Below are positions 4,689 to 62,925 of a stretch of 64,000 nucleotides of DNA, in pieces. Each line of letters opens with the position of its first letter. The stretch's first letter is position 1. A model generated the notes under the pieces. That model was not told the origin of the DNA. It was given only the letters and a program-made list of their open reading frames with translations, and searched no databases. The stretch lies in assembly GCA_050084515.1 (NCBI GenBank), contig CM114271.1, forward strand, positions 42,408,001 through 42,472,000, given 5' to 3'. The DNA is from Blasia pusilla (lineage: Eukaryota). The position numbers and the translations under genes were made by a program.

Positions 4689-4708
4689 TCCACATGAGAA
4701 TGGATATT

Positions 4709-7871: not shown

Positions 7872-8047
7872 AGTAGGTAGTTCTATATTCTGACTTGTGT
7901 GTGTGATATGGATGAAGGCGACTAACGATGGGGCCACATGAGCACCCGGCCTTCTTGCTCTTAGCGTCTGAGAGATGTATGTTATGGTAGGTAGGGATAG
8001 ATGGCTATCTAGAGTTAGAGGGACCTAACCACCAGCTAGGGGGGCGA

Positions 8048-8263: not shown

Positions 8264-8269
8264 TCACTG

Positions 8270-9520: not shown

Positions 9521-9531
9521 TCGTGAATGTC

Positions 9532-13303: not shown

Positions 13304-13304
13304 A

Positions 13305-13975: not shown

Positions 13976-14129
13976 TACACCACACAATGGGTGTGGTATC
14001 CAAGGGTGTCATTGTAGCACTCCCTGCTACCTCGGGTTCCTCAAACCCATCACGCTCCGGTGCAAACACCTCGCTCCACGTAGTCTGCACGTGCTCATCT
14101 GCTAATCGTCGAAGGTCCTCTGTCGACCC

Positions 14130-24950: not shown

Positions 24951-24960
24951 GGTAGTGGTG

Positions 24961-29117: not shown

Positions 29118-29119
29118 AC

Positions 29120-32652: not shown

Positions 32653-33990
32653 TATCATGCGCATACACATCGCTACACAACCCACACCACTGGTCACATT
32701 TACATACCATAAAACACCGATTTTCCCCAACATACGGATAGATCCACACATAAATGAAACATACTCACGCATATACACCAGGACCCCACAACCGCCGCCC
32801 TAAGATCATGAGTAGTAAAAATGGCTTACCCGACCTAAAACTCCATTTATGAATCTACATCGGCATATCAAACCACATCCACCCTCCTCTATGAGGAAAT
32901 CCGGACGCTAGCACCCTAACACACGTCTATGCAACAGAGGCGCTCCTAAGGCTCAACATGAGAAAGATGGCCTGGACAAGCCATCTTCCTCATGCGTTGA
33001 TTGGGTCAATGGGTCACGTGCTAGACTAAAACCAAAATAGGGAAATTTTCATAAATGACGTTTCCGACATAACAGACCTGTCGCCAACCTCATCCGACAT
33101 CTCGGGACGAAGTTCCACCCGAACAACCCAGTGACTCTCTATTTCATCGACGCGATAGAACTCTACCTACATCGAAATAAGATGTGATAGCTGTCGTGCA
33201 TATACACATTGCTACACAATCCACATCGGTGGTCACATCTACATACCATACAACACCGATCTTCCCCCACATACGGGTAGATCCACACATAAATGCAACA
33301 TCTTCACGCATATACACTAGGATCCCACAACCGCCCCCCTAGCTGGAAGTTGGGTCCCCCTAACTCTTGTAGGGTAACCCTATCCTATACGCATCTAGCA
33401 CCATCAGGGCCGTCATCCCTCCAACACTACCACATTACAGCAAGTCGCCGTGTTGATTCCTCCAAAGAGATTTAACACTCTCGTACCCTACTCCAAACAT
33501 AGACACGGATCCACTCATGCCATACAAGCTTGTCTGCACTCCACGCATCTCAACGTTCATCCCCAACAATAATAATGAAGCCCCGGACCATGGGAAGAGA
33601 CACCCACCCTAGCATGTCTCTCCATGGGATTATCCACTATGGGAATGTCCTCCGCATGTGTGATCCTCTCCCCAAACCCTCCTGATCAGCGAACACCACA
33701 TGTGAATGCTGCCAACGTGGTCACCGTATCCTCACGTGGTTGACCACCACTACTCCCTGTAAACAACACCGGTAGATGGCTCACTCGTCCATTACCTGAT
33801 CGCCACCCTGGCGGAAAGGAAACCGTCTCCTCCCAAAATTCTAGAATGAAACCAAGGGGATACACGACTGTACTCCCTACCAACATATCATACGACTCTG
33901 TTGGTGTCGTAATCGCCCGAGTGCGCACAATCGCACTATCCGACTCATGCTCTAGTTGGAGTCTAACTACCAACTCCTATCGAGTCATGT
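32653..33990 (-). mobile_element. Internally deleted copy D of the DNMT family, with a complete B1-A2-B2 end
   Basis: Protease C-terminus (ESYDMLVG...PGW); MTase motif I RVLNLFGGINT at about 33440-33490; deletion to the 3'UTR; PPT; B1 33329-33192; GC spacer; A2 from 33189; B2 32790-32653. Confidence 0.82.
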
Positions 33991-34232: not shown

Positions 34233-35679
34233 CTTGTAATTCCTACGATGGAAATTCAGCATCTAGTTCCCATGTAACAACATTAATTTAAATGGCCTCA
34301 TTGTGTGAGGAGAAGCCTAGATAGATGGTCTTGAATTTAAAACTTTTATGTGGAAGGAGTCATAATTGTATGATATAGGTGGCTTTTAGAATAGAGCGTT
34401 ATTAGGATGATCTAAACCCATCTTGTATCTTCGCATCCTAATACGACCTAAGGGTCTGGGGGTGCAAATCTTGGAATTTATTATTCAGAAATATAATTAA
34501 AGAAAATAAGTAACAAATCTTAATTTCTTGATACGAGAAATAGTTGGTGACCTATCACGATAACGTAATCTTGTATGTCGAGTTTTCTTTGTGTTTAGGT
34601 TACATTGAAGTTTCACCATGACCGCACAGATGGACTAGACTACTTTGCATTTTCAAGATTTGTTCTATATTCAGCGATTTATTTGTATTATGTTTTCATA
34701 CACCTTCTCTCTCCGTTGTCACTATTTATTATAGAAAAGCCATTTGGGTGGTTAGCGACCTAAACCGACCACATCTGTTATCTATATCTATATTATAATG
34801 GGTGACCCTACATGTAAAATAAGACAAAATAGTGGGATAATAAGACAAAATAGCAACATGTTTGAATTTTTTTCCTTGACTTACATTAGAATCTTGCATT
34901 AGATGGGTAGAGAGAATGAGTTTGAGTGGAAGAGGAAAATGGTTTTATTGATTAATAATATAATTAATTTAAATTATAATGGGTAATCTTAGATGTACAA
35001 TAAAAAATAGTGGGATAATTAGAAAATATTTCAATTTTCCCTTTATTCATATTTGATGGGAAGGAAACTAAATTTTAATGGAGGAATAGATAGTGTTTAA
35101 ATTTTATTCAAGGGTGGAATTACTTAGTTGATTGGGATATGATTTAAATTTTAATCGAGGAGTAGAATTACTGAAAAGAGTGGAATGTTATTACTCTTCA
35201 AAGAATATCTAAATTATATCAAAATTTAAGGAAATTAAAAAATATTTTTTAATAAAATAATCATTAAAATATTTTCTATTTTTGAAAAATATTTTAAATA
35301 GAAAATATAAATGGATTAAAACTACTATTACTTTAATTAGTAGATGTAATTTTGGTGGAAAGAGTGTAAGAAGAAAAAATATTATTCAAATATTTATGGA
35401 GTAATGGAATTACTTAGGGTAGTTGGATATTAGATAAAACTCAAATTTGATTACTCTTTTGATACTTTAAAAAGATAAATTATATTTGAATTTTGAATTT
35501 AAAAAAAATCATTTTCTAGGGTCTGCACGATCATCCTTACTTTGTAATGAGTACATACGTGAAATTGGAATGTTTTGCTCCTCCTATGCACCGGTGAGAT
35601 GATTGGGAATGAATATGTGGAGGCTAATAGTGTGAAATTAGTGGACTCACGATAAATAAAGTTTAATCTCTAAGAAGAT

Positions 35680-36015
35680 GAAAAAAAATAAAAGCGATAG
35701 AATTTTTTTTAGAATACATCTTACTTAGCTCAAGACAAATTTTCATATATTTTCCTTTATTAATTTTGGAAAAATAATGTATCCCTTTCCAATCACGATA
35801 CTTCAATAAGTAAAAAAGTTCACTTATTTTGATGATTTTTTCCCAAAAGAGGGATTCAATTTTTTTCCCTAATCTTACTTGAAATTATTTTTAACAACAA
35901 TCTATCCTCAATTATTTTGAAGAATAATCATTTTCCCATTAGTGTCCTATGATCCTTTTCATTTTTTTCCCAATAGGAAAATTAATTTCCCCTCAAAACT
36001 AAACTTTAGAGTTGC
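35680..36015 (+). repeat. Dispersed AT-rich repeat
   Basis: Similar to 12550-12875, for example GATGATTTTTTCCCAAAAGAGGGATT in both. Confidence 0.75.
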
Positions 36016-36504
36016 TCGCCCTACCTAGCCGCCTCTGCGACCTGAAAGACCCTCCTCGACGCTGCCTCTGTGACCTAACCTAGCCCGCCTCCGCCTCCTG
36101 CTCTTTCCCGACCCACCCGCTTGCATACACTCGACGCCACACCGCGCGCTACACCCAAGTGTCGTCCCACGTCACCCCGCACCAAAGAAATCTGTGAAAA
36201 ATGGACAGCGCTTCCGCGCATGGCCTTTCAAACACAAAATGACCAACACAATGCCAACGAGCATCTCCAAGGGCTACCGACCGAGGGAACTCGCTTGCCT
36301 ACCTGCAAACAACGAATTCCCACCATCCCCCTAACATCTTTCTCATGTAAAAAAAAAGAGTAGTAAAAACGGCACACCCGGCCTAAAACTCCACTCCTCA
36401 ATCTACATTGGCATATCGAACCTTGTCCACCCTGCGCTATCAAGGAATCCATACGCTAGCACCCTTGTCCTATCTCACACCCATACAAGAGAGGTGCTCC
36501 AACG
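36016..36504 (-). mobile_element. Distal half of an A1 repeat (TGTCACATCT subfamily) running into the 5' leader
   Basis: The reverse complement matches 39847-39974, then continues into non-B sequence containing the putative self-priming site (36348-36335). Confidence 0.78.
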
Positions 36505-38690
36505 TGTCATGACCATACGGATTATGTCGTAGAGTATAGTGTGCTAGTAGAGGCCATACCTTATGTAGGGCCATAGTGTCCAAGTAGAGATGCGGTTTCA
36601 TACATAGGGTTGGGGGTTACTCACTTGAGGGTGACTTTTCCAGTAGGGCGTGCTCTTAGGTTGGAGGATATAGTATGGAGTGCACTCAAAGAACAGTTAG
36701 TTCTTTGAGTTGAGCCTGTTGCGTTGGGAGTTAGCCTTGGTAGTGAGTAGAGCTCTTGGCTATGGTGGTTCCCGCAAGCTTCGACTTGGATTCTTCCATC
36801 GTGGAGTGGATTTGGCTCGATTGTATGTGATTATATACATGTTTTATGACAGTAGGTCTTCCACGGATTTCACTCAAAGAACTAGAGTAGATCGATGGTA
36901 GCTTCCATCGTGGATCAGTAGAATCTGGTTAGGGCTGATTGTGTACTCAGCCGTGGATCTTCATGGCTTGTGGCCTATGTTGGAGGTGTGAATCTGGTGC
37001 GTGGTTGGTTGGGAAAGAAGCACCTTGCTGAGAGCTTTCCAATGCTTTTTAGACCGCCAGATTTCGTTAAGGGAGTTGGAAGTTATCAAGGATTGAAGAT
37101 TCTGGTTCGTGTTCGACGGTTTTCTGATGTGGAGAACTTGGAGTGAGGGAGCTCTGTTGAAGTTCATCCAGATTGGGTGAGAGATTCCTCTTGCTACATA
37201 TATTGTTATCTCATATGAAGCAATCTGCTTGAGTGTGTGGAGCGTTGCGGATTTCTGTGTGCATGAATCTGGGCGGAAGCACTGTCGGATTTGCGATTGT
37301 GGAGGTGTATGGACAACAAGTTTTTCTGATTTTTAGCTCCAAGTACAGAGCTCGGTTGTAGCTGATTTTTTGTGGAGAGATAGCTATGGTAGCCAATTGA
37401 ATTTTGGTTGAATTTTGGTGGAGGGTTTGTGGAGTAATTGTTGATCGAAATTGCGGACTAGCTCAAGGTCTGGCTATGGTGGACAACAGATCGGAGGGGT
37501 GGTTGGTTGGTGATTCGTCTGTTGTTGGAGACGCCTATCCCGTTGGGGGCGCCCTAGTTGGGCCTCTCTCCATAGCGAAGCATGGCGAAGCCTGGAAAAT
37601 GGGGCATGTCTCAAGCATTTTGAGGCTTCAAGGCAACTCGTGGTAGCTCGGGGCGAGTGGGCGTGAGAGGCGGAGTAAGGAGCAAGGAGCAAGCAAGCAA
37701 GCTGCTTGCTTGGGCGTGAGGCAATTTTTGCAGGATTTGTGGGTTGAGTGTTGCAAACTAGTCACCTATCTTTGGGCTATTATGCCTGGAAGACGCTTAA
37801 CTGCTGAGTTCTTAACTATGTCAGTGTACACACTGGTGTAGCTCATTTGGTGTTGTTCGGAGATGTGTTAGGCGCTTTATGCATCTCGGGTTTTCGGTTG
37901 ATGGACCTCTAGCACATAGTATGGTGTAGCCTCTCCATGTAGGTAATATTTTCAGGGGCTGTGAGTGCGATTAGCACGTCATCGACCAGCGGCAGAGTAG
38001 CTATTGCGTTAGAATTGTGCGATGGGTTATGTGGATTCAGGGGGCGCCATGTTTGGTGGATTGTGTTACCTTGATTTCCATTTGCGATTGGAGGGTTGTC
38101 GTTGGACTTCCTGTGTTTGGATCCCCTCCATCATTGCTTCTTGCTTTTGCGCCCAATATTAGGGTTGACGCTGATTTCCTGAGTAGTTTTATCCATGTGT
38201 GCTATAGGTAGTGAGGCTAGAGTGATGACCAGTAGATTGTGGGAGGCTTCTTGTGGTGATGACAGGTTAGGTTGCCTATACCTATAGCTAGTAGAGCTAG
38301 AATAGTACAGTGACATCGACATCACTTGGTTACTTAGTGGTGGTGATTTGGTGGTGGTGTGGCATCGGCGCTGGTCATCACGGAGCTGTCTGTTGGTCTG
38401 GTTGGGGACCGTGGTGCGGACAGTGGTGGTTTTACACGGAGTGGATTGAGGTATCGGCTACCTTTTCCACTTCCAACGGTTGATGAAGAGGAGGAAGAGG
38501 GTGTTCCAAACACCGAGTCTTCTACGTTGTTATCGAGTGTTGTAGCTCCATTGATTTGGGACATGGACGGGAGATATGGGGCCATAAAGGGCCCATCTGG
38601 ACCGGTTGCAGGTTTCGCAGGTTGGGTCATCCAAGCTCTCGTACGTTGCATTTTAGTGACTGGAGTCATGCAGCTCAATAATTAGTTATT
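36505..38690 (+). mobile_element. 5' end of a DNMT-family element: A1 (36505-36872), leader and possible gag start
   Basis: TGTCATGACC... is nearly identical to A2 of copy B (53801-53435) and continues into unique leader instead of B. The downstream extent and the gag start (TRSGLRYR ORF at 38359) are less certain. Confidence 0.75.
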
Positions 38691-38819
38691 TGGGATCACT
38701 TACGTAGATGATCTCATAAAATTTGGACCAAAGGCCAATATGGAAGAGACTTTATTCTTATTGGAGAGTGGTTTTTAAAAAATTTCAGCAGCTTTCCTTT
38801 TTGGAGTTTGCCTTATTAG

Positions 38820-41000
38820 GAATATGATCCTCGATTTAAATCTTAAAGTCCAACCTAGTAAATGTCGAGTATGGTCTCCTTCATGCCTTCCCTCAACATT
38901 CACTCCATCTACTCCTCATTTTCCCATCTACATTGAAGGGGTTAGAGTTCTTGGGGTCCCAATTGGTTTCATCGACCATGTCTCAAAGTTCTTGGATGAG
39001 GCCCTTTTGAAAGACGTGAAATAACTTCATTTGTTATCTCATCTATGGGATCCCCAAGTGGCTTATGGGATTCTCTCCCAATGTTTTCTACGACGTCCTT
39101 CCTACCTTCTTCGCACTTGTCCTCCCACTTCAAGGTTCTTACATCGTTTGACCTCTTTTGATGCTTCTATCTTGGCAACTTTTGGTCAACTTCTTAGCCC
39201 GAATACCTTTGAGAAAGAGGATGGTGTCTTTGCTTCACGACAAGCTATCTTGCCTATTTCTTTTGGAGGGGTGGGACTGTCCTCCACAGTCGCATCTGCT
39301 CCCGCAGCCTTTTTGGGGAGTTGGGCGTTGGTGGCACCAATTATGGCTTCAAGGTTTCTCCAAGGAGATACACATATCTTGATGGATCATATCGCCCATG
39401 TAGAGGAGGGGGACTTTTTATTTCAACAACAACTGAGATCTGTACGAGCTCTTCTTCCTCTTGCTACACAAGCAATTCTACCCCCTTTCAGTCAACTAAT
39501 TACGCAAGGGCTTGATCGACTTTGTCACATCTGAGTAGCCGATAGGCCGAGATCTATCGTGGATAGGGCGTAGGAGCCAGCGGACTATCTTGAGTGTAAC
39601 TTTGTCCCACAGTGTCGGATGAGGTTGAGGATAGGTCCATTGTGTCAGGAACGTCGTTTCTGAAAACATTCATGTTGAGGTCTTTTCCAGCCGGATGACT
39701 TGTTGATCAGGTCACCCGCCCTTGGTAACATGTGCGCGCAGGTTACCAAGGAAAGGGCTATTTTTAGGGGAAGAGACTTTTGGCTCTTCCCAACCTATAT
39801 AAGAGAGGAAGATGGCTTTCCTAAGCCATCTTTCTCATGTTGGGCCGTTGGAGCACCTCTCTTGTATGTGTGTGAGCTAGGACTAGGGTGCTAGCGTCCG
39901 GATTCCTTGATAGCACAGGGTGGACGAGGCTCGATATGCCGATGTAGATTGAGGAGTGGAGTTTGAGGCCGGGTTGTGTGATCTCCATGTATATGTATGA
40001 GTTGATTTTTGTACATGTGTGGATCGACCCGTGTGTGGGGAAGATCAGTGTTGTGTGGTGTAGATGTGACCAGCGATGTATGTTGTGTAGCGATATGTAT
40101 GCGCACGACAACTTCAAGAGCATATCTCCGAGAATTTACATCAAATCAACTTTCCCAGCATTCTCTCCAAGGCATCTTCTAACGCTAATCGAGCTCGTCT
40201 ACGTTCATGTGCGGGTAACGGAGCGGGGGCGTGGCTTACTGCAAATCCTCTTATTCTTCCATTTTGTCTTCCTCGAAGTATATTCTCGACAGCTTTGCGG
40301 ATACGTCTTGGACTTCCCCATCCTTCTCTCTTAGGAGTGCCCAATTGTGTATGCGGGAATCCCATTGATGCCAAGGATATCCATATTCTCCGATGTGCAC
40401 ATCGTGGAGAACGAACGACCACACATGATGTCATTAGAGAGGGGGTAGCATCGGTGGCTCGTACTGCAAGATACACCGTTGGGCAAGAGCACCTCCACGT
40501 CCTACGTTCAACCACACAAGCAACCTCTCATCGGAGAGTGGATCTTGTTATGTCTCGAGATGGATTCCGGACACTAGGTGATGTGGTGGTTGCTGATCCA
40601 ACACGTTCTGACTTGGTGTGTCGAGTCGCACCTACCAAAGGCTTGGTAGCCGAAGCTGCAGCAAGAATCCATGAGTTTAAGTTATGCTGTGAGACATGCG
40701 ACTGATGGATTTATTCCTTTTGCAGTGGAAGTATTTGGTTATTTACATGTGTCTTTTGATACTTTCTTGAAAACATGTGCTCACCACTCCCTCGAGAATC
40801 ATCACCTTGCCCTTTCCCGTAGTCCTTCTCTCTCGGTAGTTACTACTTATTTTCGGCAATGCATCTAAGTGGTCTTACAACGTGCACAAGCCTTGGCATT
40901 GATACGTCGTGCGGAGGTGGTGGAGGGTTGCTGGCCTCGTCGTCCATTCACGTATGACCAACCACTCGTGTTCTTGTCATATTTGTTTCAAGCTATCAAT
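38820..41000 (+). mobile_element. 5'-truncated CRE-clade (restriction-like endonuclease) non-LTR retrotransposon
   Basis: RT end (SKC..W, VLGVPIG); LPISFGGVGL; AFLGSW; GAGAWL; ALRIRLG; CVC...HILRC zinc motif; THD; VDL...GDVVV endonuclease core; FIPFAVEVFG; VLQRAQA. Confidence 0.85.
39523..40110 (+). mobile_element. Solo A-B unit of the DNMT family (588 bp) with 4-bp TSD ACTT
   Basis: ACTT-TGTCACATCT...GCGCACGACA-ACTT. Removing it and one ACTT restores the CRE reading frame LDRLQEH. Confidence 0.9.
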
Positions 41001-48533: not shown

Positions 48534-49129
48534 CTATGACAGAACAATAATGTCCAAGCAGATAGAGGTTGGAACTGACCTAGTGTAGTTTAGGTCAAGG
48601 AACTTTAAGACCTTTTTAAGTCACAAGTTCCCACCCTTACTCGAAAACAAAATTCTGTTTGCAATCACGAAAAGTAAATAATAACGAAAAGGAAAGAAGG
48701 GCATCAACTCAAATTCTAAAGCCTGTGAAAGAGCAAATCGAAAGCCTCGGAAATTGTGATAAGAAACCTGTCAAGTTCTAAATTCTGTCTAAACACATAG
48801 CATGCTAAAGGCGATCGTGAGTACTGTAATACTCTCGTTGAAATGGAGTATCCAAAGGCTTGACTAATGTGCAAAAATGTTGTGCAACCGGAAGTGGCTC
48901 AACAGAAAAATCAGAAGATTTCCGAGCAGACAGACAAATCGGATCCTTGACAGACTACGGAGCTGAATACAGATTTCTAGGAAGAGCAAATTTCATAGCG
49001 TTCGAGAGAGATCCGGACCTCAGGTGATGCGGCTACTCCACTGTTTCAATGCGGCGAGATTCGTCGTTGATACGCAACAGCATTGTAGCAGGCTAGTCAT
49101 GAAAGGAAAGAAAGCGTCAACAGAGTCAA

Positions 49130-50117
49130 CATAGCGAGACTTTGAGCGAGACACAGAGCGAGAGCTATAACCGCGCAGCCGCAGTGCCTCAAAATGAAAG
49201 TCGAGACTCAACTCGAGAGTCCCCCGTAGTGCCGCACTATCTTGCACAACAAGAGCAAGAGTCCGGACAGAGCGAGCTGGGAGAGTCCCCCGTAGTGCCG
49301 CACTATCTTGCACAACAAGACCAAGAGTCCGAACAGAGCGAGCTGCGAGAGTTGACGGTCGAAAGTCGAGAGAGTCACACGTTCTCAACTTCCCACTGTC
49401 TCACACCCGTGTCCCGTAGAGCCGCTGCTGCAGCACTGTCTACACAATGTGAGCAACAAAGAGACGAGATGAAGAGACGTTGCTGCCACACTGTTTCGCA
49501 CAATGTGAGAGCAACAAAGAAACGAGACAATGTCACGAAGCGACGAGACAAAGAGATGATAGTGGAGACTCGAGACGCGCGCGCTGAGAATCCTGAGAGG
49601 GAAATGGCATCCCTCAGCTTCACTGGACCCACTACCCACAGTAGTCATTCATTGACAAGTCCGAGCTGTAGAGCAAGAGTCGATAGTCGCAGCCACATAG
49701 CGAGACTCCAGACACAGAGCGAGAGCTATAGCCGCGCAGCCGTAGTGCCTCAAAATGAAAGTCGAGACTCAACTCGAGAGTCCCCCGTAGTGCCGCAATA
49801 TCTTGCACAACAAGACCAAGAGTCCGGACAGAGCGAGCTGCGAGAGTTGACGGTCGAAAGTGAGAGTCACACGAGATCAACTTCTCACTGTCTCACACAA
49901 GGGTCCCGTAGAGCCGCTGCTGCTGCACTGTCTCGCACAAAGTGAGATCAAGAAAGAAATGAGACGAAGCGACGAGACGAAGCGACGATGTCACAAAGAG
50001 ACGATGTCACGAAGCGACGAGACAATAGTAGAGAGTTCTAGAGACTCGAGACTCGAGCGCGGGCTGAGAATCCTGAGAGGGAAATAGCACCCCTCGGCTT
50101 CACTGGACCCACTACCC
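49130..50117. repeat. Two imperfect long direct repeats inside the hAT 5' region, with a nested 66-bp duplication
   Basis: 49130-49637 and 49696-50117 both start CATAGCGAGACT and end CTTCACTGGACCCACTACCC. Confidence 0.85.
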
Positions 50118-51038
50118 CCTTGGAGTCTCGGACCCTCCGGAGTCTGGAATCCGGATTCCGGATGTGCATCCGGACATCACTACCCCGCATCACTACCCCA
50201 CAGGCGGCTTGCCCTAGAGCGGACGCTTAAAATGCCCAGAAAGAATCTAACGGACGTCACGAAGTGGTCAGGGTCCATTCAAAAGCTGCCACCTTGCCCT
50301 CCCGTCTTCTCAGTTTGCCGACGCTCGGTTAGTACCCCGGTGATAACCCCGGAAAATGATAATCCGGCTCCGGAACGGACATTTCGAAAATTCAAAACAA
50401 CAAACACAGATAATAATGCAGCCAGCCACTTTCCGGAAGAAGGTAGGCGACCCTCGGAAATGCTGCCGGTAATTTCCAATTCGAGTCGGCCAGCTCTACT
50501 CGCAGCCCCGGTTCTCCCCGGACGTTGCTCCCGTCCTCTCCTGGTGCAGATTCGTGTTCCAGAAAGAGCGAAGTCCATCTGCATCGACGGTGGATGTGGG
50601 GCGCTGTGACGTTGGAGCGTTGGGTATCACTCGATCATGAGAGACGGAGGTCTGCACTGGGGAAATATTCCGAAGGTTCGAATGAATGAAGGGTCGGCAT
50701 GCGAAATATGTGGAACTTTAATGTGGACCCTCTGGGCCTCGCTTTAGCGTCAGCACGGTAAAGCGGTGATGACGGGTGAGGCCTCTCGGGAGGAAGATCA
50801 CGGTCAGCAGGTTTCGAGCTCCCCGGTTTTTCCCCACACTCCAAGAGTGTTTGACCGGTAATTTCTAAATATCAGCCGGCTTTTTTCAATTTTTACAAAG
50901 AAACTGTAGTTCCCGGTTCGGTTGTTTGTGGAGACTTTGCTGGTCAGATCGGTAATTTTTAAATTTTACTGGCTGACATTAGAAATAATGGCGGTTCTTG
51001 GCGCCTGTATATCACGGTCACCTTATTAGGAACTTAGG

Positions 51039-51241
51039 ATTGCCTTATCTCCATTTAGGGCGGCCTCCTTTATCGCCGGATCCCATGGGCATCTTGACTT
51101 TTAGCGGCCTTACCCAACAACTAGGAAAATAAGAAAGTATTGCCTCATCTCCGTTTAGGGCGGCCTCCTTTATCGCCGCGTCCCATGGGCATCTTGACTT
51201 TTAGCGGCCTTACCCAACAACTAGGAAAATAAGAAAATATT
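51039..51241. repeat. 100-bp tandem duplication
   Basis: Units start ATTGCC at 51039 and 51139 and are nearly identical. Confidence 0.93.
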
Positions 51242-51990: not shown

Positions 51991-52999
51991 GGGGAGAAGG
52001 CCCCTTCTTTCTTTTTAGAGCCAGTTTTGGCCTGCAGATTTTTGGCTCTTTATACCCCTCTCCTTTGTATCTCTGATGGGTTTTCCATCAAACGTTTTAT
52101 TGAAGTTTATCTCTCTCTTGTGTAATAGATGGACTTGGCTTCTTGTATTGAATCCTTTAGTCCCTTTTCCTCTTCCTATATGTTGTATCTCATTGTTACA
52201 CTCTGTATCGGGTTAGCTCTTATGGCATTTTGCACTCTTGATAGGATTAGCAATTATAACATTAGCACCATTAGTATTTAATATAGTTTGGATTCATGTA
52301 TGTGGTTTGGTGTATGCACCTTTCGTATTCAATATATTTAATATTCATGTATGTGGTTTATTGTATGCACCCTTAGTATTCAATCTATTTTGTATTCAAT
52401 TGAACACCTATGTATTAATTTGCTCTATATTTTTCACTATTCTGTAACTTTTCAACCTAGATAATGTTTTCACATTTACATTAAAATTGAGATATATATT
52501 TGTAAAATTAAAAAAAACTTATTCTAAACCCATAAGTTTGTATGGGTTGAACCCTCCATTCTAAGAAAACATCCAAACACGACGAAAGCCCTTAAGGGAA
52601 CGATGGGATAACTTTTTTTACATAATCCCAGTTTTGGACCCTAAAGGGCGTAAAAGACTGAGGGACTAAAAATTAATGTCTGAGCCTTCGCCCACTCTCT
52701 TCATCAACTAGCCTTGGCCCTCACATTGGACATGCACTCACTCAAAGGAGAGCAAACACGAAGAAGAGACTCATAAGTTCGTATTCTGAACTTATTCGGA
52801 TTGTATAGACCGTATTTTTGGGATGGCACACTAGTTTTTATTTTTTATATTAATTTATTATAATTTACTATAATCAACTCAAATTCAAACATCTTCCCTT
52901 GTGCAATCTTCTAGAGTCTCTTTTATTTTTATTCATTTGAAAATTTAATTTATTTAAGGTTCATGCCAACCAAATCATGAAAGTTGGTTTGCTCATCAA

Positions 53000-53327
53000 T
53001 GTCACATCTGAGTAGCTGATAGGCCAAGATCTATTGTGGATAGGGTGTAGGAGCCAGCGGACTATCTTGAGTATAACTTTGTCCCACGGTGTCGGATGAG
53101 GTTAAGGATAGGTCCATTATGTCAGGAACATCGTTTCTAACAACTTTCCAGTTGAGATCTTTCACAACCGGGTAACTTGTTAACCAAGTCACCCGCCCCT
53201 GCTAACCTATGCGTGCAGGTTACTGAGGGGATAGCTATTTTTAGGGGAAGAGCCTTTTGGCTCTTCCCAACCCTATATAAGAGAGGAAGATGGCTTTCCT
53301 AAGCCATCTTTCTCATGTTGGGCTATT
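53000..53327 (+). repeat. Proximal half of an A repeat (TGTCACATCT subfamily), interrupted by copy B
   Basis: Matches 39523-39850; contains TATATAA at 53274. Confidence 0.9.
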
Positions 53328-53920
53328 TGTCGTGCAAATCCACATCGTCATACAACATACATCGCTGACATACCATACTCACATACATACATAATATAGA
53401 CGAGAGCATCCACAAACACAAGTGTACCACAACTGAAATCCGTGGAAGACCTACTGTCATAAAACACGTATAGAATCACATACAATTGAGCCAAACCCAC
53501 TCCACGATGGGAGAATCCAAGTCGAAGCTTGCGGGAATCACCATAGCCAAGAGCTCTACTCACTACCAAGGCTAACTCCCAACGCAACAGGCTCAACTCA
53601 AAGAACTAACTGTTCTTTGAGTGCACTCCATACTATATCCTCCAACCTAAGAGCAGGCCCTACTGGAAAAGTCACCCTCAAGTGAGTAACCCCCAACCCT
53701 ATGTATGAAATCGCATCTCTACCTAGACACTATGGCCATACATAAGGTATGGCCTCTACTAGCACACTATACTCTACGACATAATCCGTATGGTCATGAC
53801 AACTGTCGTGCGAATCCACATCGTCATACAACATACATCGCTGACATACCATACTCACATATATACACAACATAGACGAGAGCATCCACAAAGACAAGTG
53901 TACCACAACTCGCCCCCCTA
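53328..53920 (-). repeat. PPT (53920-53911), B1 (53910-53804), GT spacer, A2 (53801-53435), B2 (53434-53328)
   Basis: B1 and B2 are near-identical 107-bp repeats ending GCACGACA; A2 matches 36505-36872. Confidence 0.92.
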
Positions 53921-54356
53921 ATTGGCGGTTAGGTCCCTCTAACTCCCAGGTAGCCCTATACATCTACTACATGCTATAGGGCTACCTGCTAGGTTGCCCC
54001 ATCGTTAGTCGCACATCTGTAATCCATATCATTAAAGAACACGGTCTCACTCCTTGGCACTCACTATGCCTGGCACCCTGCTGGTCCGTAGGAACTCCAA
54101 CACCAATGCATCATCATGAATATCATGCTGATCCATACCACCATCTCCAACCTTAGGATCTGAAGGCTGGCCATCTACCCTCTGACTAGAGTAAGATGTC
54201 ATGTGGTCCTCCATACTAGAGTCCACCCCTAACCAACATAAAAAGGCAGATGCATGCCAACCTGACACCATCTCCTCATCAACCTCGCCATGCCATCTAG
54301 CCCCAGTTGCATCCTCTTGGCTAGTACACGGGTTCCTAGTCAACCCATCAGCATCA

Positions 54357-57004
54357 ATGATGGATGGTTGGTGGCGAGCTCACGGATTGCCTAGGAGCAT
54401 TGTGTCCGATCGAGATCCAAAGTTTACCAGTGCCTTTTGGAAACATCTATTCAGGAGGTTCCGGACCAAACTCAGCTTTAGTACGGCCTTCCATCCTCAA
54501 ACGGATGGGCAAACGGAAAAAGTAAACTCGGTCGTAAACCAATACTTACGGAATTATGTGAGTGCAGACCAGAGAGATTGGGCCAAGTGGTTAAGTATGG
54601 CTGAGTATTGTTACAACTCGACTAAGCATTCTGCAATCGGAGAATCTTTGTTTCTTCTTGCGTATCAAAGAGAACCAAAAGGGCCTCTTGACGTAGCTCT
54701 TTCAAAGGGCGCTACATTGACACACACTCGTCAAGCAACGGCGGAATGTTTGTTAGTGGAAATGCAGGAACGACAAGAGCGAGCAAGGAGAAGTCTCGCC
54801 AAGGCTCAACTAAGATACGTGAAGCATGCTAACAAAAGTCGGCGCCAAGTGAGTTTCCAAGTTGGGGAACAAGTGTGGTTGAGTGTAAAGAATCTCACTC
54901 TTCCGAAGGAATTGTCAGCCAAGTATGCTGGACCATATGTGATCAAGGCAAAGCTGTTTGAGGATGTGTACACATTGGAGCTACCAAACGAGTTCAAGAT
55001 TCACCCGACTTTCCATGTGTCACTATTGAAGAAGTGTCTTCAAGACAATGTGCGTCCGGAGCAAAGGAGGATGTTGAGACCACAACCGGTCAACAGAAAT
55101 GATGAACCAGAGTTCGAGGTTGAGACCATTCTACGTTCCAGACGTAGAGCCACCAAGTACGAGTACTTGGTCAAGTAGAAAGGCTACCGTGTGAAAGAGG
55201 CGACTTGGATTGCGGAGGCGGATCTTCAACACGCGCAAGAAGCATTGCGTGACTTCAGATTGATGCAAGAGAGGCACGTGCGTTAGTACATGGTGAAGCA
55301 ATGGACATAACTTGTGACTGGAAAGCTTGGGTCGATAACCCGGTGTAACTAGAAATGTTAAGTTGTTGCAATAAAGAAGACATGGATTTGGAGATTCGAT
55401 TCTTGTATTGTAATTTTGAGTTTGGTTTGTGCAAGGCAATGAGTATTTCTTCATATGCTTAGGATGTAAGTCAAGGGGACCAAACAATGAGTATTTGAGG
55501 TGAGAGCTTGTATTCAGATAAGGCATCTAGATCATGACCAAGTGTTGAAGTACTAGCATTTGGGCTCGCCCTAACGTCGGCGGGGCAGATGAGTCTGTCT
55601 CGGGGTTTGTGGTGATCTCATTCATGTTGCATGACTGAACTTAGTGACGCGCCTAGGTGGAATACAAGTGACCCAAAAGTAGTACGAGTTGGCTAGGTTG
55701 ACAGGAGGTTGTTTACAAATAGTGAGTGAAGTGTTAAGTTGCAGACTTAGTGAGCTTATTTTGATAGTTTAGATTAGTTCTGCAGAATTGGTCTAGCCTC
55801 ATCGAAAAGAAGAAGCTAATAATTCTAAGTGCTGCAAGCGACAACCTAAGACTTAAGCCAAAAGAGGAATTGCGGGTTAGCTACCAAAACGCGATTCAGT
55901 GTTAAGCTTCCCAGAACTTAACATTAATAAGGTTTGCGTTGATGAGGACATCAACCTTCTAAGGAGGGGTGAGTGTCGCAAACCTCATAACCAAACAACA
56001 CCAAATATGCACCAAACGAAACATCAGAACTCAAAGGAACTCACGCTGCGAGGTTTGCGCTTTGGAGAGGCGTTTGGAAAAGTCTCTTGGAAAAGTCTAA
56101 GAGATGAAACGCGGAACAGAGTTGTGCGATTCATGCGTTAGTGGTCGCGACCAGGAAACCTAGACCAAATGCGAGCCAAGACTTGAGATGAGTTGAGTCT
56201 TGGGAGGTTGGTTGCCAAAGAGGTGAGAACCAGTTTGGAACACGACTAGCGTTTCAGAGAATCTGACTGTGTTTAGGACCATAACCTTGAGCTCCAAGAT
56301 GCGTTTGGGACAAGTAAGGGCGCATTGAAAAGATGATCTTAAGACGCTTTCGACGCACCAAAGATTTCAGCGAACGCATAAGTACAGGCTGAGATATTGG
56401 CCGAAAATGATTGACAGAGAAATCGGGTTGAGGGCCAATTGGAGAGGCCCGAGTGTCTTTCCCTAAATGTAGGGGGCCCACGGAGATCCCCAGAAGTACT
56501 AGTAAGGGAGGACTCTCTCCGAGATATCTCCGAAAACGAATCCCCACTTTGGGCGCCAAACGGCGTTTTAGAGGCACGGGATGGAACGGGAGTTTGGCGT
56601 GGGAACTCGAAACCCAAACCTGATCCAAGGGAGTGGACTTTGTACGCCACACTTGGATCCCAACCCAAGATTCACTTCGTGCAATTCTTGATGAGGAACT
56701 CATTGGATGTCCATCGGACAGTTGGAACCGCTAGGCGCGAAACGCCGTTTCAGGTTCCTGAACCGACCAGAAAGTCTGTCCCAAGTCTTTCGAGATTTGC
56801 CCATGTTGTAAACTGCGAAACTAGGAAGGTTGAGTTTGATGAGAGTCCGAGACGAGAACTCGGAAATTAATCCCGCTGATTGATCCAAGACCCGACTAAC
56901 CAAAGTGCGTGTTTGGATGCAGATCAACGTTGAGAGCGTGACCTATTGAACCCATGCTTCTGCAACAAACAAGATTAACGTTCAACGAGAGTAGGCATAC
57001 GACA
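54357..57004 (+). mobile_element. 3' part of a chromovirus (Tcn1-like): integrase, chromodomain, PPT, 3' LTR (55974-57004)
   Basis: IVSDRDPKF; HPQTDGQTE; YAGPY; HPTFHVSLLK; chromodomain FEVETIL...YLVK*KGY...ATW; PPT AAGGAGGGGTGAG; LTR TGTCG...CGACA. Confidence 0.92.
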
Positions 57005-58037
57005 CTTGATCATCTCCCCAGTGCCACTCCTGATATGATTTCAGCAATTGGTTCAAAGGCTTTGCCATAGCACTAAATCCCTTCACATACCTCCGATAGT
57101 AGTTCGCCAATCCCATGAATGCCCGAACTCTACTCACATCTACCGGACGAGGAATACATGCAATAGCCTCCACCTTTGCTTGTTGAACTCCCAAACCACC
57201 TGGATAGAGCACATGACCCAAATACTCAAAATCCTCATGGAAGAACTTATAGTTTCTTGGATGCAAACGTAGACCATGAGCTTTCAACCGCTAAAACACA
57301 ATCTGCAAATGTATCAAATGCTCCTCCACCGTGTTACTGAACACCAAGATATCATCAATGTATCACCGAACAAAATCCAACCCTGCTAGGATCCTGTCCA
57401 TCACTCTCTGAAACTCGGCATGTGCATTCTTCAACCCAAAGGGTAAGAATTTCCACTGGTACAAACAATCCTTGCCATGAGAGTTGACACCCCAAAATAT
57501 TGTCTTGGCCTTGTCACTCTCTCAAATTGGCAACTGATGGTATCATGCCTGAAGATCCAAAGTTCTGAAAATCTTTGCATGTCTGACCACATCAAAGATC
57601 TCCTCAGGTGTAGGCATGGCATACCTATCGGCCTTGGTCTGCCAATTGATAGGACACTAATCTCCACACATCCGCCTATCCATGTAGTTGCCATGCACAT
57701 CCTTTTTAGTACGCATGATAGTGGCTGATGCATACTCTCCATGCAAAAACTCCACTAATCTAGCCTCCAAAAGGTCCAACATCCTACTCTGAATCAAGTC
57801 CCTCTCCATATCACTATATCGGTAGGGACGACGAAAGATTGGCGAATCACTAGCCAAATCAATCCGTACACCAGGTCCAACCAAAGCACCCAACTCCTTC
57901 ATGCTAAAGGCAAAACAACTCCTATAAGCACGTAGGAATTGTGTCAAGCGTCGTTTCTCACCTCCCCTAAGCTTGGGCCCAAGTAATGGCTCCCAAGTCT
58001 CCTCCACTGGCACACAAGAGGGAGAAGACGACGCCAT
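57005..58037 (-). pseudogene. Reverse transcriptase, copy B
   Basis: FRRPYRYS; MPTPEEIFD; YHQLPI; PFGLKNA; *YIDDIL; EYLGH; RAFMGLANYYRRY. Confidence 0.93.
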
Positions 58038-58269
58038 TGGCTGCTATGCCACCCCTCACAAGATGGTACACCCTTAGCTACACCACCATCTGAGCAAATA
58101 AATCCTCCACCAGCATGAGCAACCAACTCCACATGCCGAGTGATTACATCCCATTTACTCCAAGGATGCAAAATACTATTCTCCTCGGCCCCAGCCGATG
58201 TCTCTACCGTCCTAGTAGCCATCGAGCTCATCACAAGGGGTGGAAGACCCATAGACATAGTCCGAAGTC

Positions 58270-60250
58270 GACGTTGCTCGGCCATACCAAGACTCAAAAT
58301 CCAGGTCAAACAGTTCAGGTCCATGGCCTGACCCAACACATGACGTCGGGAAGCCTCAGAAATGGAAGCAACCGTTGTCACACAAGGAGCAAATCCCATC
58401 GCACGCTCTCTCTCATCAGCATTAGGCTCCACCAACTGTCGCACATGAGAATCCCATACAAGCCCAGCACCACCTTCCCTGTAGGCATGTGACGAGGGAA
58501 AACTCACAAATGTGGGTAGTGCCATCCTAGGCTGGCCCACATGGTTCATCACTACCATGGGTGACCAATCAATAACCCTCACCACCTGAGAAAGTCATCG
58601 AGTATCCAAGATACTATCCACTGTTAGGCAAGGATCCCGCTACACTGCATCATATGCTCGACGTAGAACCTCCCTAGGCAACAAGTTTGTCCACCACAAG
58701 CGTGAACAATGTGTACGCGAGCCAACTCGCGCTGCATCCAACAACATCGCTAGTCCAATCCAAGACCGCACCTCATGAACACTTGCCATCATCCGGGTCA
58801 GAGTGTCACCCAACAATGGAACATTCTCTAGACTGTAAGCTAGAGCACGTGCCTGATGAACTTGAAGATGTCCTAACACCCGCAACATCTCCCAAAACAA
58901 TCGAGGCCTAGAGTCGTGTAATCCCTCACCACGACCAGCACTTGTATGACCCTCACATGGCCATCCAGCAATCACCAAATCCACAGGACCAACCCTCTCA
59001 AGGTCCTACGTGTCACGACCCTCATGACCAAACAAGTGCCAAGCGGAACATCGGAACATTAGCGGGCTCACGCTAAGATGGTTTGCGCATCGGAGTTGTC
59101 TCAAAGAGGAGACAAGAGACGAGACGCGAGCGAGGAGTCGCGTTTCGGGTGTTATGGTCGCGACTGAGAAACCTGGACCAAACGCGGAATGAGACTTGAA
59201 AGAAGTCGAGTCTAGGAAGTGGGTTGCCAAAGGAAAGATCCGGATTTGGAACGCCACTAGCGTTTGAGAGTTTCCGACTGTATTTATGGCCATAACTATT
59301 AGCGCCGAGATGCGTTTGGAGCAAATAAGAGTTCGTTAGGAAGATTATGGAGAGCCGGTCCAAACGCACCAAAGATCGCTGCAAACGCATAAGCAGCGGC
59401 CGAGATACAACCCGAAAACGACTGTAAGTGGAGTCGGGTTGAGGGCCACAATGAAGGGCCCGACCCTCTTTTCCCAAAGGGGAGGGGTTATTGGAGAACC
59501 CCAGAAGTACTAGTAAGGGGGAAGGTCACCGAGAGTGCTTGGAACCCAAACCCCACTTTGGGCGCCATGGGCGGCTCAAGGGCATGGAACGGAACGCGAG
59601 TTTGGGGTTGGGTTGGAAAACCTGCACCAAGTCCAGTGAGGCGATTTTAGACATCCCTCTTGGATTCCACCCCGCGACTCAATTACTTGGATCTCGGTTC
59701 GGAACTCACCCGAGGACCGTTGAACAGTTGGGATCGCTAGGCGCGCAAGTGCCGTTTCAGATCCTTGGACTAACCAGAAAGTCTGTTCCAAGTCTTGAAG
59801 GACTTGCCATGTGTTGGAATCTAGGAACTAAGGAAGGTTGAGCTTGATGAGACGCCGAGTGGAGGACTCGGTGGGTTGGAACGCCGGTTGGCCAAACCCG
59901 ACTAACGAGAGTGCGTGTTTGGGTGCAGATCGGCGATGAGTTTGTGACCTACTGAACGCACGCTTCCGCAACACTAAAGATTGACGTTCAAGGAGAGTAG
60001 GGGCGCGACACTACGCCCCCAACAATGCAATGTGTGACCGCAAAGCAGGCTTGTACCCATGAATAGCTGATGGCGGCAACAACTCAAGATATCTCCACAT
60101 CAAGTGATCAATATGTTGGGATGAGACTCTCTAGGCCATCTCATCTCGCTCCATATACACGTATCTCCGCACAGGAATACCGGCCTGCAACACTGCAGCC
60201 AAACCAGTGCTAATCCCACCATAGAGATCTAACACACAAATGCCCTTCGG
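58270..60250 (-). pseudogene. DNMT3-like C5 methyltransferase, copy B, split by a solo LTR
   Basis: VLDLYGGISTG; YVYMERD; GPVDLVIAGWPCEG; RLFWEMLRVL; YSLENV; LLDAARVGSRTHCSRLWWTNL; ERERAMGF...SRRHVLGQAMD. Confidence 0.92.
59011..60010 (+). mobile_element. Chromovirus-family solo LTR (1000 bp) with 5-bp TSD CTACG
   Basis: CTACG-TGTCACG...CGCGACA-CTACG; homologous to the LTR at 55974-57004. Confidence 0.95.
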
Positions 60251-60567
60251 CGGATACTGCCATACAATGGGTGTAGTATCCAAAGGGGATAACTCAACTG
60301 GACGAGAAGTAGGTGTGCACCGTGGGGCCTCCTCTTCCTCGTGAGGTATAACAGCCTCACACCAAGCCTCTTGCATTAGGCGATCAGCCTCCTGCCGTAG
60401 TGCACCGCTTGAACTCCAAAGTGGCACATCCAACGATGACGATGCCTCTATTGCAAAACTAGGGACCTCCTCTACCTCCTCATGCACAGGAGAATCCATA
60501 GCAAAAAGATTACCCTCCAAAAAGTCTCATGGCCAAGTGACTACTCCACTAAAACCAACCACATATG

Positions 60568-62925
60568 CTAACACCGTTGGGGAAGACCCTCTGGTCGAGC
60601 CCCAAAAATAAATCTTAGAGGAACCTGGCTCATATGTCCATCCTCGGACTGCCAACCAGGTCTATAAGACGTTGTCTTAGTCCAGTAGTCCATCTGAAAA
60701 CCCATCGGGTACAATAATGCTCCTCCAACTAGTACATCATACGACTCCCCTGATGTGACCACTCCAGGTACTCCCAACCTGGAGCTATCAGTCACATGAT
60801 CTGGTCTCAATTGTATAGACAACTTCTCCCATGTCATGAATTGAGACCTATCATTGGCTCCTCCAAGTGATGTTTGAATGTGGAATTAATGGGCAAGGCT
60901 CATGCTCTGACCTCCGAATACCCAAACCAATACATGCCGCCTTTCCCAACATCAAAGGTTGGGCACCAAAGTCTAACAAGACTCTATTTGGTCTATACAC
61001 CTGTCCTGTAGGACTCACCAATCGGAATATCCCACTTCGGTTGTCCAACATATATACACCAGATGTAAGCCTCCACGATCAATGGCTGGCCGGGTTGGTA
61101 ATGTATCCATGTTCGCCGCTGTTGCCTGCCAAGTAGCACTGGTACTCAATGCTACACCTGACATAGAGGGTCACTCCACCGCAACACCCTCATCCACCTC
61201 AACACGTCTAGCAATAATACCCCCACGTTCATACAACGTGGTTGCTAGCTGAAATACAAGAGCTAAGTCAACTCCTAAAGCCATAAGCTCCGTGGCCGAA
61301 AACAATGGGGATCCCAACACTGAAGTTGCCATCCGCAATATTGCACTGGATGTTGCATCCGTGTCTACTACACGCAATATAGATGCCTCAATCCCCACTG
61401 TAGGATCAATAGGCTACGTAGGAACCATGGATGGAGTCCTAAGCACCTCAGACAACAAGAATGACTGGGGAAGCCTAGCCTGCCTCCCTGCCTCACCCTA
61501 TTGTGGGTCCAACTCCACAATAGCACCACGTGGCTCTGACGCTCAAGTGGCTCCTCTCGTAACTGGAGTTGATGCCTCAATCTGTGTTGCACTCCCCATA
61601 TAAGAGAGATCATCCCCTCCATAAGAGGTGGAAGCCCGTGCTCCCGAACGTGCTCTATGCTGGATACCAGCCATAGTAGCTAACTTATGCTCCACCTGCT
61701 CAATCCTGGCGGCCATAGCTGACTCTGTCGTAGTGGTAGGGGTAGCCACCGTAGGCTCTCCAACCACTGGTCCACCTCTACCACCCCGGCCTCTCGGAGC
61801 TACTCCACCACGGCCGCGGCCTTATCTCAACTTTGGATGAAGATCAAAGCAACGCTCTCGAGGATGACCTGGTCTCCTGCAATGATCACACTTCGTTGGG
61901 GCTAACTGAGGTCCATCCTCCCAAGTCCATCTCCCATCCTCTTGGGGACAAAACCTCCTAACATGATCACCTCCACATGTCCAACATGATTCTCCTTCCT
62001 GCGGGGCAACAAATGAAGGCAATGGTCTTTGCAAAAGTGTCCCTCTAGGACCTGACTGAGGTCGTGTGTACCCCCACGACTCCCACTACTACTACCACCA
62101 CCACTACTAGGAGATTTTGAGGTGGACTGCTGAACACGAGAAGTAGTAGTTGTATCCCTACTGAATACGGATGTCACCACTCTCTCCTCCACCATGTCAA
62201 GCTCAATCTTCTCAAATAGAGCAAACACATGGGTCAATGTGGGTGAATCATCACTCATAAGAGTAGCATCACGTACCCTACGGCGCAACTCTCTGTTCAA
62301 GATCCCATACCAAAACTGGACTGTCTGAGCCTCAGTCACACCCTGGGTAACTGAAATCAAGCGTCGCATACGAGTTTATGCCTCATGAAGACTCTCACCA
62401 ATCTTTCGCTCAAATTCGTGAAGACTCCTCTACTTCTCTGTCTTCACTCCCTGATAGTTCTTCTTCAACCTCTTGAAGAACTCTGCAACCGAGCTGAATG
62501 ATGGTGGGGCAATAGTACCTCCACTAGTACCCCCACTGGTACCTCCATGGGTACCTCCACTCGTACCCCCACTACGGCTCGTACTCGTACCACTCAACGT
62601 CGGGCTGGCTGGCATAGTAAAAGCACTACTACCAATACCACAAAGGTGATAGACATATAGCCTGGAGACCAATATTGTCTCCACGCCTCAATCTCAGCAA
62701 CATGGTCCTTCCTGAACTCATGTTAATCATCCATGGGTGGTCCGTCCAAGTGCTGAAACAACCCCTTCCAAACCAAGAAAGGTGTAAACAACGTGGCGTT
62801 CCGCAACATCTGCATATCACACCACGTATCAAACTCAATCGTGCCCAGTGCACTCGAGTATCAACCTCCTCGATCAATCCATACTTTTGGTATCTACACC
62901 CATCAAGTGCCAAACTCACCGTCAT
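60568..62925 (-). pseudogene. gag and protease, copy B
   Basis: Zinc knuckles at about 61850-61990; protease LLDFGAQPLMLG...SYDVLVGG...SYRPGW, colinear with copy A. Confidence 0.82.

Follow-up and report, generated by a model that had tools for sequence, protein, structure and literature searches.

Background

Textbook retroviruses and long terminal repeat (LTR) retrotransposons integrate the tips of a linear complementary DNA (cDNA), and the boundaries of their LTRs are the integrase sites. Here we present an analysis of a family of Gypsy-like elements whose ends are built from two repeat modules, A and B, in the split order A1...B1-A2-B2. The family was recognised in a stretch of 64,000 nucleotides from Blasia pusilla (contig CM114271.1, positions 42,408,001 to 42,472,000), hereafter the window, which is plant-like eukaryotic DNA packed with nested retroelements. 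Coordinates count from the first letter of the window, and nn denotes the two bases between a B end and an A start.

The closest described element is KnitGypsy-Dnmt3 of Klebsormidium nitens (de Mendoza et al. 2018, PMC5890265), for which the legend of Fig. 4c gives DIRS-type repeats (A-coding-B-A-B) together with Gypsy domains. The repeat layout is therefore in print, a point that an earlier note on this DNA, made from the letters alone, had left open. The accessible portion of that paper's main text gives no target site duplications (TSDs), termini, junction palindrome, transcript extent or mechanism for KnitGypsy-Dnmt3, and the word 'circular' occurs in it 0 times. A more recent preprint (bioRxiv 10.64898/2026.05.21.726589, 2026) names 'streptophytes (Gypsy-DNMT3)' and, in the part available, leaves the repeats undiscussed. 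For DIRS-type elements, the model set out in the available part of PMC7192593 involves an internal copy of the abutted outer ends, and a circular intermediate is proposed there. Furthermore, the retroviral integrases of PFV and HIV-1 are described, in the available parts of three reports, as cleaving the palindromic LTR-LTR junction of 2-LTR circles (PMC1180852, PMC1905944, PMC4372172). Within the literature searched, we found no paper proposing a mechanism for split direct repeats in Gypsy elements or in KnitGypsy-Dnmt3.

Results

Split direct repeats in the window and among its relatives

Read on the minus strand, the 3' end of the copy designated B begins with a polypurine tract (PPT; TTAGGGGGGCGA, 53910-53921), a motif found before B1 in every related locus. 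It is followed by B1, ending CGACA (53804-53909), the spacer GT between B end and A start (53802-53803), which is the centre of the palindrome GACA-nn-TGTC, A2, running from TGTCATGACC to GGATTTCA (53434-53801), and B2, delimited by repeat comparison, with its CGACA end at 53328 (53328-53433). B1 and B2 are 95% identical over 107 nt, and A2 is 97% identical over 368 nt to A1 of the same copy (36505-36872, plus strand), a 5' end consisting of A alone, with host-element sequence before it and non-B sequence after it. Copy D has the same 3' arrangement on the minus strand (32653-33340: PPT 33340-33332, B1 33331-33192, spacer GC 33191-33190, A2 from 33189, B2 32792-32653), its B1 and B2 being 87% identical. 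Copy A, on the plus strand (8037-8263), shows the PPT (8037-8047), B1 (8048-8174), spacer AC (8175-8176) and A2 (8177-8263), with similarity ending after the first 87 nt of A2 through truncation at 8263. These coordinates bear out what the earlier note had read at the 3' ends, including a B1/A2 junction of exactly 2 bp with the spacers GT, GC and AC.

At the other side, four A starts lack an upstream B: 36505 (TGTCA), 18189 (TATCA), 53000 (TGTCA) and 39523 (a solo A-B). The claim that 5' ends are A alone thus stands at 18189, 36505 and 53000, and two of the pairings with 3' ends that went with it were wrong or rearranged. The start at 18189 had been assigned to copy A, but it lies on the strand opposite to 8037-8263 and belongs to a separate copy, 18189-8264; that at 53000 had been given to copy D and is in fact the 5' end of a host element interrupted by copy B. 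The start at 36505 does form one insertion with the 3' end of copy B, the two halves being inverted and 16.5 kb apart.

A scan of metagenome contigs gave 284 confirmed relatives, from which 80 loci were kept, with integrase identities of 45-79%. B and A of one full-length locus, L013, were used as queries against these loci and the window, self-comparisons were added, and loci with a common 3' flank were merged. Fifteen unique ends read PPT-B-2bp-A-B directly against the flank (L002, L011, L013, L014, L019, L024, L025, L029, L030, L031, L032, L056, L057, L073, L077), L069 provides a single 5'-truncated variant, and 16 unique ends read PPT-B against the flank (L003, L007, L008, L009, L021, L023, L028, L036, L037, L040, L045, L049, L055, L060, L061, L071). 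Three further loci, L041, L042 and L076 (integrase identity 64%, 64% and 52%), have PPT-B-(GT/GC)-TGTCA, in contigs that stop too early, or with an A too long, for a B2 to be included. The PPT-B-2bp-A-B layout was found down to 54% integrase identity, and the B/A junction down to 52% (L076). The two ends do not carry the same complete LTR; A alone stands at the 5' side and either B-nn-A-B or B at the 3' side, and the split direct repeats typical of the DIRS order, A1...B1-A2-B2, are present. The two kinds of 3' end are connected in one case: L036 shares its site and flank with L030 and lacks 453 nt that L030 has, made up of one B, the spacer and A2, which shows that a B1xB2 deletion turns the long form into plain A...B.

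The window is heavily rearranged, with the halves of copy B inverted, copy A truncated at 8263 and copy D inside another copy. This would suit an ordinary Gypsy element whose ends were split by nested insertions, inversions or misassembly, a reading to which we give hardly any credence. It is refuted by the recurrence of the layout at 15 independent metagenome sites, with junctions that agree nucleotide for nucleotide, and the layout is also reported for Klebsormidium in the figure legend mentioned above (PMC5890265). The element is a conserved, real structural variant of a Gypsy retrotransposon, and the layout is a property of its clade.

Target site duplications and the integrase

The tabulation of TSDs had been set in advance as a test, and ten loci carrying both ends were used for it. 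Perfect 4-bp duplications flank eight of these ten full-length loci, namely three of the form A...B-nn-A-B (L013, AAGG; L014, TCTC; L057, AATC) and five of the form A...B (L007, TACA; L022, TGTT; L028, ATTA; L036, TGTG; L040, TACA); the flanks of two more A...B loci match at 3/4 (L037) and 2/4 (L045) bases. At all ten, the duplication immediately borders, on the outer side, the TGTCA (or TATCA/TCTCA) that opens A and the CGACA that closes the last B and, as had been predicted, is not at the B start. TG..CA termini with a 4-bp TSD, within the 4-6 bp expected of Ty3/Gypsy elements, are also seen in the solo A-B of the window (588 bp; 39523-40110, plus strand), which has ACTT on each side. Duplications placed in this way are the hallmark of a DDE integrase that works on the A start and the B end.

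These ends also bear on the Troyka group, with which the earlier note had suggested a comparison. Troyka elements, in the part of the source available (PMC12440569), have 3-bp TSDs and CG..CG ends and are reported from animal phyla, whereas the present element has 4-bp TSDs, TG..CA ends and green-lineage hosts, and Troyka was rejected as a relative.

Coding content was read from six-frame Pfam scans with X put at stop codons (E<=0.01 in the window, E<=0.1 for L013). The nearly full-length copy 18189-8264, on the minus strand, encodes a DNA methylase (13769-13539, E 9.9e-10), a reverse transcriptase (RT; RVT_1, 10846-10367, E 1.2e-23), RNase H (RT_RNaseH, 10059-9790, E 1.9e-26), Integrase_H2C2 (9351-9196, E 1.9e-13) and rve (9141-8878, E 6.3e-8), and the full-length metagenome locus L013 has methylase, RT, RNase H, H2C2, rve and PHD in that order. 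The Ty3/Gypsy pol order RT - RNase H - integrase (rve) is present, and the PF00145 methylase lies between protease and RT, as in the Gypsy-DNMT3 clade. The element is a Ty3/Gypsy-lineage LTR retrotransposon with gag, protease, C5 DNA methylase, RT, RNase H, DDE integrase and PHD finger, in agreement with the earlier view of a Gypsy-like element with a DDE integrase. When the window integrase was aligned with 13 relatives, D136 and E231 proved conserved in 14/14 sequences and the middle D in 12/14, with Y in the decayed window copy.

Searched among longer proteins, the window integrase gave 113 matches, most with rve, H2C2 and PHD and some with PF00145. The closest named matches are from liverworts (Riccia sorocarpa, 80%; Calypogeia fissa, 74%), and further named ones are from Marchantia polymorpha (also a liverwort), Sphagnum fallax and Pleodorina starrii. 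K. nitens KFL_009030040, which has RT, RNase H, PF00145 and integrase, is 51% identical to the window integrase (E 3.5e-82). From these similarities, the element can provisionally be placed in a green-lineage 'Gypsy-DNMT3/PHD' clade.

Also, the tyrosine recombinase profile (PF00589, Phage_integrase) that the earlier note proposed to scan for gave no match in any six-frame scan of the window elements and L013. The repeat layout, being as in PAT and Ngaro elements in the available parts of PMC7192593 and PMC5890265, would be explained by a DIRS/PAT/Ngaro-type cycle, in which a circle is integrated by a tyrosine recombinase that is encoded elsewhere or was missed, and B1-A2 acts as an internal template in the manner of the DIRS internal complementary region. 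Such a cycle is highly improbable here in view of the zero Phage_integrase matches, the conserved DD35E integrase, the perfect 4-bp duplications (a DDE signature), the TG..CA termini and the absence of B2 from the RNA described below. To our knowledge, PAT-like, Ngaro and DIRS elements are not expected to make target duplications.

The reverse-transcription unit and the transcript

In all copies the PPT adjoins B1, and a candidate primer site (CTCAAAGAACTA, 36873-36884, plus strand) adjoins the end of A1 and is kept after A1 in related loci. The 11 nt in this position, CTCAAAGAACT, are exact in 6/12 unique 5' ends, differ by one change in 4/12 (L020, L037, L040, L057) and by four changes in 2/12 (L036, L045). 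A itself contains a stretch exactly complementary to the nucleotides that follow A1 (13 nt in L013, 11 nt in L022, 12 nt in the window); in the window this candidate self-primer within A1 is TAGTTCTTTGAG (36698-36709, plus strand), and the two sites co-vary between copies. The site after A1 is not tRNA-like (no TGG type), and no tRNA could be matched to it, since a tRNA search of the window gave 0 genes. This complementarity suggests Tf1-like self-priming instead of a tRNA primer, the site after A1 presumably acting in priming. As the PPT abuts B1 and a primer-like site follows A1, the unit of reverse transcription, from PPT to primer site, would be B-nn-A. A local hairpin, CTCAAAGAAC-nnn-GTTCTTTGAG, was observed inside A.

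Three raw RNA sequencing (RNA-seq) runs were mapped on 52950-54449 at a likeness of at least 90%. Read depth was 80-138 over the internal region, 92-168 over B1 and 136-199 over the first 50 nt of A2, and fell to 42-51 late in A2 (53450-53499), to 8-16 in the bin of the A2/B2 seam (53400-53449) and to 2-11 over B2. Almost all reads ran in one direction, the sense direction of the element provided that the library was prepared by the usual stranded procedure. The transcript holds B1-nn-A2 and very rarely the seam or B2, and B2, being scarcely transcribed, is therefore not inherited through RNA and must be rebuilt in each cycle. In agreement with this, a comparison of B1 and B2 (12 + 12 sequences, unique sites) had 0 columns with differing majorities, so that neither has paralogue-specific positions. 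A1 and its own A2 in L013 are 92% identical, similar to the identity of L013 with other copies. The proposal that the replicative LTR is B-nn-A accordingly gained support on three sides, from the PPT before B1, the conserved primer-like site after A1 and the position of B2 outside the transcript.

One RNA joint, 53768-53480 (A position 322 to 34, back 289, with 4 nt shared), was carried by 6-10 reads in all three runs. The DNA contigs of run X1 lack it; expression of a variant copy, or template switching during library preparation, could account for it.

Junction and seam

The B/A spacer is 2 bp in 21/21 junctions (AC 8, GC 7, AT 3, GT 3). The four spacers would fit C-to-T decay, on either strand, of a palindromic GACA-GC-TGTC; variation of the spacer as a mark of de novo joining was considered and rejected, GC, AC, GT and AT being the expected decay of a palindromic GC.

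The A2/B2 seam was read at 14 unique sites of the L013-like family (12 complete forms, L069 and window copy B), and in 12/14 consists of the exact A1 end and the exact B1 start (..TTTCA|GTTGTGG.., transitions allowed), the exceptions being L002 (+1 nt) and L014 (+17 nt). Copy D, of another subfamily and outside the 14, has at its seam ~25 nt matching the sequence downstream of a relative's A (36375 and below) and additionally 11 nt resembling its own PPT (TTAGGGCGGCG, 32803-32793, minus strand), and the solo at 39523 lacks both remnants. Such seams have the appearance of a cDNA with B-nn-A LTRs whose tips were joined end to end, for the most part precisely. A variable A2/B2 seam against a fixed B1/A2 junction, as the earlier note had foreseen, is found in a qualitative sense, in the form of occasional indels and remnants of primer-binding site (PBS) or PPT. 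Such PBS or PPT remnants also occur at the circle junctions of retroviruses.

A model for integration and its alternatives

A cycle that would produce these copies begins with the LTR set by reverse transcription, B-GC-A, reaching from PPT to primer site, in the middle of which the right end (..CGACA) and the left end (TGTCA..) abut over 2 bp and form the palindrome GACA-GC-TGTC. RNA starting inside A1 and ending inside A2 would include B1-GC-A2 and exclude B2, and its reverse transcription would yield cDNA with B-GC-A LTRs. The integrase would then bypass the cDNA tips and cut each strand of the internal palindrome just 3' of its CA. The resulting recessed CA-OH ends, with 5' overhangs of 2 nt, would be equivalent to a processed retroviral end and would be inserted with the 4-bp stagger that the observed TSDs and termini indicate. 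To arrive at A-PBS...PPT-B-GC-A-B, two LTRs would have to stand head to tail (A end against B start), in a 2-LTR circle or an equivalent molecule, which would have to be opened at whichever junction lies closer to the primer site.

The integrase ends, the 4-bp stagger, the PPT and primer boundaries, the B2-free transcript and the homogenised B1 and B2 together show that the ends present after integration differ from the tips of the cDNA. The boundaries of the LTR are ~110 bp out of phase with the sites of the integrase, an offset that cannot be reconciled with tip integration and so would call for an intermediate with joined LTRs; the long form would be one unit plus a second LTR joined to it head to tail. 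We therefore lean, with modest confidence, towards integrase recognition ends that are out of register with the reverse-transcription LTR and a circular or tandem-LTR (2-LTR) molecule that is opened internally.

Several points weigh against this reading. The evidence comes entirely from integrated copies and RNA, the circular or tandem-LTR DNA itself being inferred. A 2-LTR circle has two identical internal junctions, and opening of the other one therefore predicts A-B-nn-A-PBS...PPT-B, a sister product found at 0/12 independent 5' ends; the elements that bear on this contrast number four (window copy B, L013, L014 and L057; p ~0.06), and copies with A-B-nn-A-PBS, in which repeats of 340 bp would stand 116 bp apart, could collapse to A...B through AxA recombination. 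In retroviruses the 2-LTR circle is a rare side product, yet the tandem form makes up about half of the present copies or more, so that a deterministic route may be at work. Many copies are plain A...B, at least one of them a secondary B1xB2 deletion; others could come from 1-LTR circles or from cutting of both LTRs of a linear cDNA. The RNA is derived from many family members and not necessarily from this locus, with 45-61 of 798-985 reads at least 99% alike, and the mapping gave no clear start or end, apart from one weak 'begin' peak, at 53640, in one run. Finally, the target duplication of copy B itself agrees at two of its four bases only.

The finding of A-B-nn-A at 0/12 5' ends, which leaves the 3'-extended form as the only one, would be accounted for by a route that needs no ligated circle. 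RT, on reaching the end of the plus strand, would switch from the A end to the B start, giving a linear ...B-nn-A|B-nn.. that the integrase would cut back at two junctions, that of the left LTR and the one added. A switch of this kind also fits the mostly precise seam (12/14) and the occasional PPT or PBS letters there. However, the extension would be single-stranded until copied, and the step is an ad hoc one without citable precedent; we consider it unlikely.

The 16 unique PPT-B|flank ends, together with seven full-length A...B copies of which five have perfect 4-bp TSDs, raise another alternative, namely that unit-length A...B is the sole primary product, released from a linear cDNA by cuts at the junctions of both LTRs, or from a 1-LTR circle by a cut at its only junction, and that A...B-nn-A-B arose where such a unit landed beside, or recombined with, a solo A-B. 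Five observations speak against it: TSDs flank the entire A...B-nn-A-B composite in 3/3 cases; the spacer is always 2 bp, with no 4-bp duplication; B1-nn-A2 is co-transcribed; A...B without a 3' A would have no terminal redundancy for strand transfer; and in L036, which is L030 minus 453 nt, the change went in the opposite direction. This origin of the long form is improbable.

Internal opening of a joined-LTR molecule, in essence the circle-mediated integration of the earlier note, consequently remains the best available account, unproven and only slightly favoured. Its core, an LTR of B-nn-A with the integrase sites inside it, has held; the circle and its end-joining are matters of inference, and the sister product was absent from the 12 independent 5' ends. 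Generalised to the clade, the proposal would be that a streptophyte and green-algal group of DDE-integrase elements integrates obligately from circular cDNA with head-to-tail LTRs, cutting an att-att palindrome within the LTR, that the 2-LTR circle, which leads nowhere in retroviruses, is the productive form, and that split repeats were reached with a retroviral-type integrase, independently of the tyrosine-recombinase elements. We offer this wider statement tentatively, as a possibility somewhat short of probable.

Copy B and its surroundings

The internal region of copy B (53922-62800, minus strand) contains gag, the C5 DNA methylase (58984-58811) and RT (57590-57210); the six-frame Pfam scan found no integrase region in it, and a foreign repeat of ~1 kb lies within it at 55971-57006. 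A1 is on the plus strand and the 3' end on the minus strand, mutually inverted and 16.5 kb apart. The flanks, 53000-53327 and 36504-36376, are the two halves of one D-like A, as judged against the solo at 39523; in the host element that copy B invaded, the first 323 nt of this A stand at 53000-53323 (plus strand) and the remainder at 36504-36376 (minus strand). Since both flanks are halves of one interrupted A, copy B is a single insertion that was split afterwards, either by misassembly or by one inversion that spans 23 kb or more and has a breakpoint within copy B. The target CGTT occurs once in the uninterrupted solo (39839-39850), and at the copy B insertion there is CGTT on one side and TATT on the other. 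By comparison with that solo, the target-site duplicate beside A1 is AACG (36501-36504, no strand assigned), and the one beside B2 (53324-53327) is decayed, its sense reading AATA against AACG at the other end (2/4 bases match).

The gag of copy B was sought in 36873-39522, where neither protein similarity nor DNA similarity to other 5' regions was found; the 5' untranslated regions appear to differ among subfamilies. The ~1-kb repeat recurs, at 67-93% likeness, at 55971-57006, 59027-60012, 28248-29121 (inverted) and 4999-5135. Two of these lie inside copy B, one between RT and the 3' part and one within the methylase region, and the repeat is probably another mobile element.

Other copies and repeats in the window

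Copy D is an internal-deletion derivative, according to Pfam and similarity scans. A fragment with the PPT and B start of the copy A subfamily lies at 32453-32541 (plus strand), and B2 of copy D adjoins sequence ~110 nt beyond it; copy D may thus have landed within the 3' end of another copy. In copy A, a PHD finger (PF00628, 7731-7865, plus strand, E 2e-8) forms the C-terminal end of the pol frame just ahead of the PPT. The separate copy at 8264-18189 (minus strand) has its A1 from 18189 and has lost its 3' end at 8264. Its methylase region contains a direct duplication of 319 nt (12030-12348 and 13309-13627, 92%), between the members of which lies an AT-rich insert (12542-12876) that recurs at 35672-36014. 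Among the full-length metagenome copies, L057 has an internal direct duplication of 0.8 kb (6476-7282 and 10286-11076, 76%).

The window also holds a Copia element at ~680-5000 (plus strand; Retrotran_gag_2, zf-CCHC, gag_pre-integrs, rve, SH3_retrovirus and RVT_2) and a different Gypsy family, with RNase H and integrase at 20447-21913 (minus strand), 29-36% identical to the element studied here. A large inverted repeat (24960-26151 / 26998-28248) has arms of 1.2 kb that are 74% alike, and tandem repeats occupy 49129-50117 and 51036-51241, with periods of ~490-565 nt and 100 nt.

Discussion

As far as our search of the literature extends, the following parts of this anatomy are new: 4-bp TSDs at TGTCA and CGACA, a palindromic junction of constant 2-bp spacing within the LTR that reverse transcription defines, a B2-free RNA, a deletion route from the long to the plain form, and a self-complementary primer site. 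Programs that detect LTR elements by a pair of identical terminal repeats will overlook the clade or set its boundaries wrongly. If the favoured mechanism is true, it would provide a naturally occurring example of a retroviral-type integrase whose regular substrate is an internal palindromic junction, and it would explain a DIRS/PAT/Ngaro-like repeat layout in a Gypsy element. The family is transcribed in RNA-seq, and the mechanism is therefore open to experiment.

Comparison with known systems

KnitGypsy-Dnmt3, as far as its published description is available, resembles the present element in its Gypsy domains and in the C5 DNA methylase that its Pol contains, and the window integrase is 51% identical to that of K. 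nitens KFL_009030040; its host is Klebsormidium, whereas the present element is found in bryophyte-like hosts, liverworts being nearest. PAT-like, Ngaro and DIRS elements have, in the accounts available, the same split direct repeats A1...B1-A2-B2 and the same internal copy of the abutted outer ends. They differ in encoding a tyrosine recombinase, in place of which the element described here has a DDE integrase, TG..CA ends and 4-bp TSDs.

Gypsy elements of the Tf1/sushi type are self-primed, and a comparable arrangement may exist here, where the repeat contains a candidate self-primer, a site complementary to the 11-13 nt that follow the U5-like end. Circle junctions of the IS3 and IS30 families, in which inverted ends abut 2-3 bp apart, are the reactive substrate of a DDE transposase; these are bacterial DNA transposons without reverse transcription, and the likeness is one of logic only. 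In the retroviral 2-LTR circle, as described in the available parts of the reports cited above, two integrase ends abut as a palindrome and an internal cut regenerates integration-competent ends, much as proposed here. The difference lies in where the junction resides and how it is used: in retroviruses it exists in the circle only, as a side route, whereas in this clade it stands inside every LTR and is seemingly the regular site.

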